Shown here: in pieces, positions 20,849 through 36,117 of the stretch
Layout of the letters: each line of letters opens with the position of its first letter
Position numbering within the stretch: position 1 is the stretch's first letter
NCBI GenBank assembly: GCA_951406725.2
Contig: OX597821.1
Coordinates: forward strand, 18,724,001-18,788,000
From: Octopus vulgaris
Taxonomy: Eukaryota
Reading direction: 5' to 3'
DNA length: 64,000 nt
Translations under genes and position numbers: made by a program
Notes under the pieces: generated by a model
Databases searched by the model: none
Seen by the model: the letters and a program-made list of their open reading frames with translations, nothing else
Told to the model about the DNA's origin: nothing

Positions 20849-21660
20849 TAATATATATTCTCTTATGTACAATATATACTTGGTGAATGCTTCATTTTCT
20901 CCTTGTGCTTCCTCATTGTCAATGGAATTTCTGACTTTCCGTTCATGACACCTCGGAAGACTGTTCAGTCCTGCTGCTTTGTAACTGTGTGTGTTCAACT
21001 GGTTGGGTCAACATTCGTCATCACTCATCCATCGCCATAGGACTTGCAGTAGATGGAATGACAAATGACAAATAAGGTCACAATAAAGAGATGTAGGATT
21101 ATAGTGTGCGTCATTGGATTAGAGTGATAAACGCTTATACAACGTGAAGACCACTCTCCGAGTCTCCGTGATTAACAACTTGTGATTAGTGCCATGCTCT
21201 TTGAGACTCCGTGATTAATACCTGCGTAATTAGTGCCATGCACAAAGCTCTCCGTCGTTGAGTCGCTTTGCAACTGCTGCCGAACTGAATAATAGTAGAT
21301 TTATACTCAGGTGTCGAATTCTATTCTGTTTGTTCTACCTATACATACACGCATGCATGCATACATACATACATACATACATACATACATACATACATAC
21401 ATACATACATACATACATACACACACATACATACATACATACATACATACATACATACATACATACATACATACATACATACATACATACACGCACTCAC
21501 GCATGCACATACACGCACTCACGCGTGCACATACACATACACTCACACATTCCTACACACACATACACCTAATTGAAAAGAGTTTATTAAAGCGTACGAA
21601 TATCAATTACGTCTTATGCATTTCTTAATTTATATAGTCTGTCTGTCCATCTATCTATCT

Positions 21661-23400
21661 AAGACTGTGACCACCCAACAAATTGACAAAAGCTGCTCGA
21701 ATACAGGGATAAACTATGCAAGTAATTTTCCACCCCTTCCTACTTGCACAATCAAACCAAATACACCGATTTTACCAACTGCAGCCAACAACAACATCAC
21801 CACCAGCAACAACAATAACAAAACAACAACAAATTTCGCCGAGGGGATAAAAGAAAAAAAGACAACAGTACATTTTACTGCACAACAAATAAAAGATACG
21901 AATATTTTAATAACGGAAGTAGATGGTATAGTAAAAATAAACATACCACAAGAAATATTAGAAGATGAAAAAAAAACTATTATATATAAAATAATTAATA
22001 AGAAAACAAAAAGTCCAGAGAAGGCTAACACAAGCAAAATCGAAAAATGCTTGAAACCCATCTGGAACTACAAAGAGTATGTGACCTGGTGGAACAAGTT
22101 TGCACACATCTGAAGAGTTAGCAAGACGTTTCTCAACGCTAACTCTTCATTCAGATGAACTTCAACTAACACCAAGCTATCGTGGACAGAAAGTGACTAA
22201 GATCACTTTAAACAATGTCCCAAAAATAGCTAACAATCTATGGCTAGTAAAGGCCTTATGTGTGAAAATGGAAGATTTCACAATTTTAGAAACTACGGTC
22301 ACGGAGCACAAAAACTGGGTGGAAAAAAAGTAGAATTTCTACTACATATAAACCAAGAGGACATAAAGAAAATACCCACCCAGATATGTGTATCAGAAGA
22401 CCACAAGTTGTATGTGGTCGTCGATGGCAGAAGATCACGTTGCTACATATGCGGCAGTGAGCAACACCTAAAAAAAGATTGCAAAGATGCCGCAAGAAAA
22501 CAACAGCAACAACAACAGCAGCCGGAAAAAACAAAAAAGCCAGCTTTACTACCCACACCACAAATTGTACAAAAAGGACTAATTACAGAAAATAAAAAAA
22601 ACACACCTCACCAACCAAACAACCACACCAACTGCACTAAGAACAGAAGCAACACCAACAACAACAACCAAGAATAAACCAACTCCCAAACCAAGGACAT
22701 CTGTCAAAAAGACACCCATCGAAAATGAAGAAACAATTACTACTCCAAATCCCCACAAAATTGACACCCCAAACAACACAATACCTACAATCACTCAAAC
22801 ACAAAATACCCACACCCCACCTCCAAAACCGCATACACCACAACCTAACGCTCACCAACCAACACCAACAACAAAATCAACACGGTCTACAATAGACCCC
22901 AATATTTTCCCCCTCCCAAGCTCTGATTCTTCTGATTTGTCATTAGACGAAGAAGACACAGAAGATTGGCAAATAGCCACAGGGGGGAGAAGAAAAAGGG
23001 GAAAAAAGAAAAGAAAAGATAACAAACAAAGCAGGAAGATTCACCACTCCCGAAACAAAAACATCCACAGAAAACAAACACATCAACACAAACACACCAT
23101 CATCAAACCCCCCAACAATGTTGACAGCCATAAACACAAACAACCACGACCTAATGGAACACATTAGGTCAAACACCAACATAACTGAAAACGACATAAA
23201 AACAAATAACCACCCACGCACAACACCACCACAATACATTAAAATAATATACGTAACACAGAACACATACAGCACCCTGAAATCTCTTTACCCTGATGCA
23301 GTAGGGAGATTTCAAAAATATTCATCAAAGAAACTATATAAAAACCTCATGGAAGAAGACTGTGAGGTGAAAAACAAAGGACTTTCGGACAACAAGCAAC
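21661..23400 (+). pseudogene. ORF1 (gag-like, CCHC zinc knuckle) of LINE copy A, frameshifted
   Basis: RCYICGSEQHLKKDC; fragments homologous to copy B ORF1. Confidence 0.8.
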
Positions 23401-23467
23401 CTTTTCTCTCTCTCTTTCCTTTTTTGCACTTTCTTTTCGTGTGTAAAACACAATTTTTTATCGGAAC

Positions 23468-33426: not shown

Positions 33427-33896
33427 CCAAAAGAGACAAGGAGAAGTAAGGCGACTTACTCATGTGTTCTTTTTCGAATTGTCTGAAGTGACCTTGGTCT
33501 TTTTTGTAGGTTTTTCTTTCCAAGGCTACACCTAAACTGTGAACCTTATATATATATATATATTGCCTTTTTATACACCACACAACCCACAGATCCCAAT
33601 TGATCAAACGTGTTTTTTTTTGTTTTTTTTTTGTGCCCCACCCATCCCACCTCGAAAAGAAAAAATTCTACATTGTATTTCGTCCATTTTTATTCTGTGT
33701 TTAGCCCTGTGTGGCTACAATAAAAAGTTATCTATCTATCTATCTATCTATCTATCTATCTATCTATCTATCTATCTATCTATCTATCTATCTATCTATC
33801 TACCTACCTACCTGCCTACGTACCTATCTATCTATCTATCTATCTATCTATCTATCTATCTATCTATCTATCTATCTATCTATCTATCTATCTATC

Positions 33897-34184
33897 TTTC
33901 CCTTTCTTTCCCCTTTTTTCTTCTTTTTTCATTTCTCTTTTCTTTTGTTCCTTTTCCTTTTCTTTTTTTTATTTTTATATTTTTTATTTTTTATTTTATT
34001 TATTTATTTTATTTATTTTTTTTTGTTCTTTTCTTCCCTTTTACGATCCCACTTGATCGAAAACCTACGCCACCCACTTTTTTTGTTTCTTTTGTTTTTT
34101 GTTTTTTTCATCCCCCAAAAGAAAAGCTCTACCTTGTAACTTGTCCCATCTGTGTGCAGCCCTGTGTGGCCAATAAAGAAACTT
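33897..34184 (+). mobile_element. 3'-UTR-only fragment of the same Tx1-like subfamily as 27157-27446
   Basis: Near-identical sequence; follows the (ATCT)n tail of copy B and is followed by (ATGT)n. Confidence 0.85.
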
Positions 34185-36117
34185 ATGTATGTATGTATGT
34201 ATGTATGTATGTATGTATGTATCTATCTATATATCTTTATGTCTATCTAATTGTATGTGTGTGTGTGTGTGTGTGCATGCTTGTGCGTATGTGTGTGCGT
34301 ATGCGTGTGAGTGCTTGTGCGTGACTGCGTGTGAGTGCTTGTGCGTGACTGCGTGTGTATGAATATATATATATATATATATTTTTTTTCTTTGAATGCT
34401 AACTCCATATTGAGTATTTCGAGATGGATTTTTGTCCTCTTGAGAGATTATCATCAGTTTGGGAATAGCAGAGTCTAGTTGGGAAACATTTGCCTATTCA
34501 GGGTAGTTTTACATTCAACTTCTGTAATTCCTTGTAAGAAAGAGATTCTGTCTTTTTACACCTCATAATAAGATATAGAAGAATTAGAACTGTATTAATT
34601 TGCTTGATGATTAATATAGTTCTCTCAACATACGGCTCTGTTGGGGAAGGACATGCTACGCGGTAAGGTCACGCATATTTTCTTAAATAGTATAACAAAA
34701 ATCATCACTTTCCGTCTACTCTTTCCGTCTATAGATTTGTGTTGCAAGTCTAAATAATTTATAATTCTATATTTATCGAGTTCTTGTGTTGGAAAATACA
34801 CCACTATGATTAATAAGATGTAACATTGGAATATATTAGTGTATAGTTAGAGAGTATGTAAGGCCGGTTGAATGGCAGAAGACATTAGAGCGTAATTATT
34901 TCGGCTTTTTATATTCTGACTCCAAATCTCGTTAACTTGGCATTTCTAATCTTTCCGCGGTTGATAAATTTGAGAACCTTGATTTTCAGTGAAGTGTTAG
35001 TGCTCATGTTACCTCTCTCGGAATTTCAGACCTTAGGTCCATGATAGAATAAACTATTAAGGATTATATTTATGTTTGTATGTATTTATTTATGTATGTA
35101 TGAATGACTGCAATCACATACTTCTGCCCCTATACATATAAAACAACGAGTTTGGAGTAGAAATAACTCAGAATGTTTAGTGGTACTTGATAAAGAAAGG
35201 TGTACTAAATACGATTCAAAATAAATTATTTTACTTAACGGTATGTTAATAGTCGAAATATGCTATTTGTTTGAGTTTATCTTCCCTTCTCGTTTAAAGT
35301 CGGTTGTAATTATCGCTAGGCGCCTGTTTACATTTCTCTCAAAGTGAAGATAATTTCAGTAAATTAATAAGTAATTAATTTACTGTGAACCAACCTCCCT
35401 GCTAATATCTATAGTAAAGAACCTCGTATTCTTTAGTTTCCAGAGCCAGCTTGTGGGCCGGTGTGTGTCATGTCATCTCTGCCAATCTCTCTGCTCGATG
35501 ATCTGTCTTAAAGAACAAATACGTTTTCATATGTCCTATTGCGGGTGATCATGCTCAAGCTTTTCACTAATGTCCTTAAAGAAATCACAGAAATAGGCCA
35601 TCCTGCTCTTCAGAGTTTTCTTGATAAATCCATTGGGTAAAGAGGCAATGTCTTTTGTAACATACTTCGTCCAAATCTTCACATCTTCGTTGAGCAGAAT
35701 CATGAAGAACTCGTGATCTACGCCATCTTATTAAGTATGGGTTGGTAGTGTTTTCGTTTGTCAAATTGAGACTTCCTGAGTTTATAAATATGTGTGTTTA
35801 ATTGTCATTTTTTTCTGTTTATCTTTCAAAAGTTTTAGGACTCGGTTGGCTGTATTCGTTACCACCATTTTTGTGTCGTGCATCTCCTCTTGCTATTTCC
35901 GTGGTGATCTTGAACACTAAATAAACATATCAAAATCTACGTTTGCGAAAACGTGTAGCCATATCTATGAACAAACCTTCTTCTCTATTTCAGAGCAAAT
36001 GAAATGGACGTTCAAATACATCGAAGGGGATAGTTTTCTTGTCTCAAATAGAGTTTTCATCAAGTAATCTTAGTAATCTTAGCGGAGATCCATGAAACAA
36101 GACTTTTCACAACAAAA

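Follow-up and report, generated by a model that had tools for sequence, protein, structure and literature searches.

In a stretch of 64,000 nucleotides (nt) of the Octopus vulgaris genome (assembly GCA_951406725.2, 2.80 Gb; contig OX597821.1, positions 18,724,001 to 18,788,000), four copies of a long interspersed nuclear element (LINE) follow one another head to tail in a 12.6-kb block, with only ATCT-type repeats between them. This arrangement raises the question whether the repeat is a tail brought along by the element or a target in which it prefers to insert. In the following, the whole stretch is referred to as the window and its contig as C8, and contig C1 is the source of the junction sample. 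The family is an L1-group retrotransposon without long terminal repeats (non-LTR), likely of the Tx1 clade, and we regard it as quite probable that it inserts in one orientation within pre-existing (ATCT)n, its apurinic/apyrimidinic-like endonuclease (APE) likely nicking the (AGAT)n strand within TAT of TATCT and thereby priming reverse transcription.

Elements of the L1 group integrate through target-primed reverse transcription (TPRT), in which cDNA synthesis starts from an APE nick in the bottom strand, and a target site duplication (TSD) arises from another nick downstream. Families of the Tx1 clade are known on the microsatellites (TC)n (Kibi), (TTC)n (Koshi) and, in crocodilians, (TTCC)n/(TTTC)n (PMC4494074), and the Tx1 family Keno targets U2 small nuclear RNA (snRNA) genes (PMC4494074; PMC4640811). 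Elements of the L1-Tx1 type expanded in coleoids (PMC8967140), and in Octopus vulgaris 80 such families covering 56 Mb were catalogued, 13 of which were recently active with 421 insertions (PMC13282606). The available portion of that catalogue contains no target analysis (PMC13282606), and the present family may be included there under an automatic name.

Results

Junctions of the element with the repeat

By inspection of the sequence, five 3′ ends of the same family were located on the plus strand of the window, at 27146, 27446, 33729, 34184 and 60824. The hexamer AATAAA lies 5–8 nt before each of them and poly(A) follows none; four continue as ATCT and the one at 34184 as ATGT. On the 5′ side, ATCT precedes the junctions at 21661, 27157, 27831 and 33897, and (CATC)n the one at 60396. 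All of these positions and flanks had been given by a first-pass annotation of the window and were reproduced here.

Genome-wide, a 19-nt motif of the 3′ end occurs 10,015 times, and a run of eight A follows it at two places only. Counts with variable-gap patterns register sites repeatedly on one strand, and figures from them are given for the clean strand. Among forward-strand sites, 4307 of 4948 (87%) reach TATCT within 4–9 nt. The 3′ junction is in phase, lying between T and ATCT. The subfamily of element B, the longest copy in the window, has 208 exact 3′ ends in the genome, and ATCT follows in 30 of 30 loci fetched from contigs C1–C4, a result confined to the 3′ side because all 5′ ends lie beyond the 1.5 kb examined. 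In contigs of four DNA runs (three organism codes), the sequence hanging loose beyond the 3′ terminus of the element is likewise ATCT repeat.

For the 5′ side, the first 100 sites of the 3′ motif on C1 were taken, i.e., the first 12.7 Mb at one chromosome end and not a random sample; BLAST against full-length copies served to place the junctions, of which 23 were corrected manually and two dropped, leaving 98. When an ATCT repeat of 8 nt or more was demanded within 20 nt upstream, 73 of these 98 junctions (74%) passed; among 17,348 background windows, 114 (0.66%) did. AGAT, the opposite strand of the repeat, was found at none of the 98 (background 0.35%). The repeat is also present on the 5′ side of 53 of 74 solitary truncated copies. 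In the youngest subfamily, TATCTATC occurs within 16 nt of full-length heads at 113 of 124 minus-strand sites, and in 27 of 30 full-length loci an ATCT repeat lies no more than 48 nt from the head motif. Microsatellite-targeting Tx1 families are recognised when a single repeat type is present in over 20% of flanks, 5′ as well as 3′; the corresponding values here are 87% (3′) and 74% (5′). An orientation-specific preference for (ATCT)n common to several subfamilies, which the first-pass annotation had proposed from the window and would have given up if most 5′ junctions lacked ATCT, is thus borne out by the genome-wide 3′ counts, the B subfamily and the C1 junctions, where the opposite of such a lack was seen.

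Two rows of the junction table, L077 (C1:8476513) and L078 (C1:9071460), are nearly equal in length, 5′ junction and (CATC)n flank and lie on opposite strands. Judged by this likeness they are probably a segmental duplicate, and therefore not independent.

Identity and age of the family

An intact copy on C1, L031, contains a 680-residue frame of open reading frame (ORF) 1 with a CCHC knuckle, CYLCGSETHLKKTC, and an ORF2 of 1145 amino acids (aa); unbroken ORF2 frames were also found in L034 and L040. The ORF2 protein (P0002) matches Exo_endo_phos (residues 20–208), RVT_1 (507–756) and zf-RVT (979–1031) and no further Pfam family. Its top match in the PDB is human L1 ORF2p (E 1.3e-53, residues 4–873), R2 being matched at E 4e-20, and its APE catalytic residues align with their L1 counterparts. 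P0002 thus combines APE, reverse transcriptase (RT) and a C-terminal Cys/His zinc motif without RNase H, as L1-group proteins do, and the copies display the corresponding insertion features, 89 of 98 being 5′-truncated, with seven informative TSDs and two 5′ inversions. The family is an L1-group non-LTR retrotransposon. It also has the two ORFs with CCHC in ORF1 that are expected of Tx1, Pfam zf-CCHC giving no match on protein P0003.

The closest named homologues are from Argonauta hians (65%) and cuttlefish (53% over RT). A scan of metagenome contigs added relatives at about 28–31% identity (80 loci); among 20 of these loci analysed with Rfam, U2 snRNA adjoins three and 5S rRNA two. In a midpoint-rooted RT tree of 51 out of 102 dereplicated rows, composed without named Tx1 or vertebrate L1 sequences, the cephalopod sequences form one clade (100/100); this clade shares a group with the elements flanked by U2 or 5S, and three other groups stand apart from it. 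Because of this grouping with unnamed relatives, placement in the Tx1 clade is likely. Hence, of the Tx1-like assignment made in the first-pass annotation, the L1-group part stands on domains and PDB match, and the Tx1 part is likely, with moderate support (81/81).

The median divergence of 30 full-length heads is 0.37%, which points to recent activity, and intact, near-identical copies are present in the genome. If the mean copy length on C1 (1.35 kb) holds, the family amounts to at least about 14 Mb.

Two side observations concern the structure of the copies. In L031 the ORF1 stop and the ORF2 ATG overlap (ATGA; L031:5250-5256, minus strand), an arrangement compatible with translational coupling. 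The full-length copies L033, L034 and L047 are mosaics that mix 5′ untranslated region (UTR), ORF1 and ORF2 of different subfamilies, which suggests template switching or gene conversion.

Target or tail

If ATCT were an RNA tail encoded by the element, 5′ arrays would have to stem from insertion into earlier tails or from template jumps, and no preference for host microsatellites would be needed. The 19 of 98 copies within 500 nt after another element's 3′ end would suit this explanation, as would the 11 copies with ATCT on the 3′ side only. However, 59 copies have the repeat on both sides, 14 on the 5′ side only and 14 on neither (Fisher p=8e-4), so that among the 25 copies without a 5′ array, 14 lack the 3′ array too, and 5′ ATCT is present in 53 of the 74 solitary truncated copies. 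Array lengths are similar on the two sides (median 69.5 nt 5′ and 54.5 nt 3′; Wilcoxon p=0.74; n=66 solitary copies that have an array 5′, 3′ or both), as would be expected if an insertion splits an existing array. TSDs, which are not discernible inside pure repeats, were read at seven impure sites of the 98; they are 6–14 bp long and begin with TATC or TATA, and their left copies run contiguously into the 5′ array. Moreover, L072 lies within a local duplicate of about 70 bp and occupies one of its units; the adjacent unit, which is empty, reads TATCTATCT and already contains (TATC)2. On the right, the occupied site exceeds its empty paralog by one ATCT unit, which may be due to slippage or be RNA-derived, and a few RNA-derived units would be in keeping with a tail. 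Taken together, side co-occurrence, length symmetry, TSDs and the empty unit of L072 show ATCT to be a pre-existing target, as the first-pass annotation had argued, and an element-encoded tail is very improbable. Still less credence can be given to near-random insertion followed by enrichment in microsatellites, whether through selection or through repeat growth at element ends. The genome is rich in microsatellites and the region around the window is a hotspot, with 13 element ends in 314 kb, both of which would favour it; yet a single repeat, strand and phase is used, AGAT being absent from all 98 junctions, and the youngest, near-identical copies are flanked in the same way as the others.

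Empty alleles were also sought at two loci in four DNA runs. At L065 other copies swamped the signal and no joint spanning the insertion appeared; at L086 the junction was repeat-masked, and a contig of run X2 aligning only from the T of TATCT onward, a possible sign of an empty allele, was not counted as evidence.

Proposed mode of insertion

For an element inserting into existing (ATCT)n, the following course can be proposed. APE would nick the bottom (AGAT)n strand within TAT of TATCT and thus prime cDNA synthesis, and a second nick 6–14 bp downstream would yield the TSD. As AATAAA stands 5–8 nt from the junction, too close for cleavage within the element, the RNA would be 3′-processed inside the downstream repeat and end with a few AUCU units; these would anneal to the strand that carries the nick, and reverse transcription would accordingly begin upstream of any poly(A). 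Insertion would leave ATCT on both sides, and later copies of any subfamily could enter the same array; retention of the target on both sides would thus give rise to head-to-tail stacks on the same strand. Consistent with TPRT are the two 5′ inversions and the extra bases, variable and rich in C/T, found at full-length heads. The predicted target-contacting loop of the endonuclease, WSNRIGSSRSYLD, which we take to be the one that steers APE specificity, hardly varies among three subfamilies but is different in relatives of 40% identity.

Specificity might instead reside mainly in the RNA, a UAUCU read-through transcript pairing at any nicked T/A step opened by an endonuclease that cuts loosely at TpA, with ATCT merely pairing best. 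Among the 14 copies that are array-free on both sides, the 3′ flank starts with TA in 11, which would suit a TpA-cutting enzyme as well as a pairing over 2–3 nt of RNA; the endonuclease loop has the same short length as in human L1; and target-like RNA makes priming more accurate in SART1Bm and is reportedly a requirement in R1Bm, according to the available part of the source (PMC7265360). Those two elements, as far as described there, are APE LINEs on a repeated target as well and provide an analogue for the priming step proposed here, although they belong to the R1 clade and SART1 insertions carry poly(A), unlike those of the octopus family (PMC7265360). On the other hand, (AT)n, which is richer in TpA steps, adjoins only 3 of 98 5′ junctions, and the loop has been kept across subfamilies that are about 80% identical. 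We hold a mainly RNA-guided choice of site to be possible, if less likely; endonuclease specificity and RNA pairing are not mutually exclusive.

Several points weigh against targeted nicking within (ATCT)n. The strict 5′ test was failed by 25 of 98 junctions and 14 of 98 copies have no array on either side, so that specificity is strong yet leaky, and these figures come from the nonrandom first 12.7 Mb of C1 with its 23 hand-placed and two dropped junctions. As TA is common to the element end and the target, the exact nick position is not fixable. Nick specificity and priming by read-through RNA are both deduced from sequence, and the node joining the cephalopod clade with the U2- and 5S-targeting elements reaches only 81/81.

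Apart from this, relatives of about 40% identity (P0007-P0031) have strongly different endonuclease loops, which suggests other targets within the cephalopod clade.

Abundance and strand of the arrays

In four samples of 100 kb from other contigs, 25 ATCT arrays were counted (about 60 per Mb), none of which adjoins an element, and exact element ends number about 4 per Mb, so that arrays outnumber ends by more than 10:1. Co-expansion of repeat and element, which the first-pass annotation had considered, is thus not supported. Around the window, 14 of 42 arrays do adjoin an element, and the region is therefore a hotspot.

Over the 314 kb of C8:18604001-18918000, within which the window lies, the plus strand carries 40 of 42 (ATCT)n arrays and each of the 13 element 3′ ends; other repeats are much less skewed. 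The strand split of the arrays in the other samples is 5/4, 4/0, 1/1 and 9/1. As all 16 (ATCT)3+ tracts of the window lie on the plus strand, element-free ones included, the all-plus orientation of its copies is partly regional. Direction of transcription or replication are candidate causes of the bias; no host gene that would explain it was found among the 27 ORFs of the window. Along C1 the orientations of the elements did not depart significantly from chance in a runs test (p=0.17), although pairs of elements 50–150 kb apart were on the same strand in 37 of 55 cases, above the shuffled expectation (p=0.0065).

Composition of the window

The block begins with a target remnant, (ATCT)3 at 21649..21660, found by regular expression on the 5′ side of element A (21661..27146, 5486 bp); all features of the block are on the plus strand. 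Element A is 5′-truncated within ORF1 and its 3′ UTR ends in AATAAAAGAAAGTT. Its ORF1 is decayed and retains a zinc knuckle, and its ORF2 (about 23469-26886), with APE and RT, contains several stops and frameshifts. Pfam found Exo_endo_phos and RVT_1 in element A, zf-CCHC (E 5e-4) not reaching the family cut-off, and the lesions were read from tblastn. The related copy L033, 94% identical, extends about 700 nt further upstream, so that A is not full length. A spacer of 10 nt of ATCT (27147..27156) leads to S1 (27157..27446, 290 bp), a truncated copy of the 3′ UTR only that belongs to another subfamily. An array composed of (ATCT)n, (ACCT)n and (ATGT)n follows at 27447..27830 (Tandem Repeats Finder, period 4, 96.8 copies).

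Element B (27831..33729, 5899 bp) is near full length and ends in AATAAAAAGTT; it consists of a 5′ UTR, a broken ORF1 (about 28.1-29.9 kb) and an ORF2 at 29991-33426 with a stop and frameshifts, whose fragments match APE, RT and zf-RVT in Pfam. Aligned over 4062 nt, A and B share 77.6% identity. After an (ATCT)n array at 33730..33896, likewise located by regular expression, S2 (33897..34184, 288 bp) is again a 3′-UTR-only truncated copy, 90.9% identical to S1 with a different 5′ truncation point. The block closes with (ATGT)n and then ATCT (34185..34230), a tract that is likely a mutated target array. The head-to-tail stack noticed in the first-pass annotation is hence real and comprises four elements, with the refinement that A is 5′-truncated and that both long copies, A and B, are disrupted by stops and frameshifts. 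Farther downstream, S3 (60396..60824, plus strand, 429 bp) is a solitary truncated copy with (CATC)n on its 5′ and (ATCT)n on its 3′ side, made up of the last ORF2 codons and the 3′ UTR and 91% identical in aa to the C-terminus of P0002; that it shares the strand of the stack is due to the regional ATCT bias.

Two further features were noted. A truncated LINE at 17600-19357 on the minus strand, with the motifs YMDDLKL and RPDI..IDMTVP, a zf-RVT match and (TAA)n/(GAA)n on its 5′ side, resembles a restriction-like-endonuclease element of the Dong/R4 type and is a second microsatellite-associated LINE in the window. At 42109-43531 (plus strand), fragments of a PIF1 helicase are likely the remains of a decayed Helitron.

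Discussion

With Kibi, Koshi and the crocodilian Tx1 families, as far as they are described in the available text, the octopus family shares the APE and RT of a LINE and the preference for a microsatellite beyond 20% of flanks; compared by description, it differs in that their targets are pyrimidine-only on one strand, whereas (ATCT)n is used here, in a mollusc and with more than 10,000 copies (PMC4494074). Full-text literature searches, which covered mostly titles and beginnings of abstracts and did not extend to Repbase or to the figure and supplements of PMC4494074, returned no report of a LINE targeting TATC/GATA. The family belongs to a known kind of repeat-targeting retrotransposon, and its target is likely undescribed.

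Among the metagenomic relatives, Keno-like elements lie within U2 snRNA genes (L117, at 782-830 and 5830-5947; L111; L113). L117 is flanked by U2 on either side and lacks a poly(A) tract; its 3′ junction follows an A-rich end and starts with TATCT, as does its TSD of 14 bp inside U2, which is the geometry of the octopus family as well. L117 is unlike that family in aa sequence (about 29% identity) and in target, as U2 continuation was absent from all 100 sampled 3′ flanks of the octopus family, which were read by eye. A tree forcing the cephalopod and U2 clades together was neither rejected (p-AU 0.134, approximately unbiased test) nor the best tree, and the likeness may therefore reflect ancestry or convergence.

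The target of Mutsu is the 5S rRNA gene. The 5S rRNA-flanked relatives L120 and L124, which we take to be Mutsu-like, have short poly(A) at the 3′ junction.

A more far-reaching scenario, put forward tentatively and in our view rather unlikely, would derive the octopod lineage from a U2-targeting Tx1 of the Keno type, or have it share recognition with one, the TATCT site and TSD geometry being kept while a switch from a low-copy snRNA gene to an abundant tetranucleotide made more than 10,000 copies possible. Priming would use read-through AUCU in place of poly(A), and the orientation of insertion would be set by GATA domains that are strand-polarised over hundreds of kb.

With GATA/TATC repeats, the small set of targets of sequence-specific Tx1 LINEs grows by one, and the copy number shows that a target-specific LINE can become numerous when its target is abundant. 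The intact young copies offer a natural endonuclease for assay and make the family a testable system for priming independent of poly(A) and for shifts of APE specificity between an snRNA gene and a microsatellite. In octopods, GATA markers can be interrupted by such insertions.

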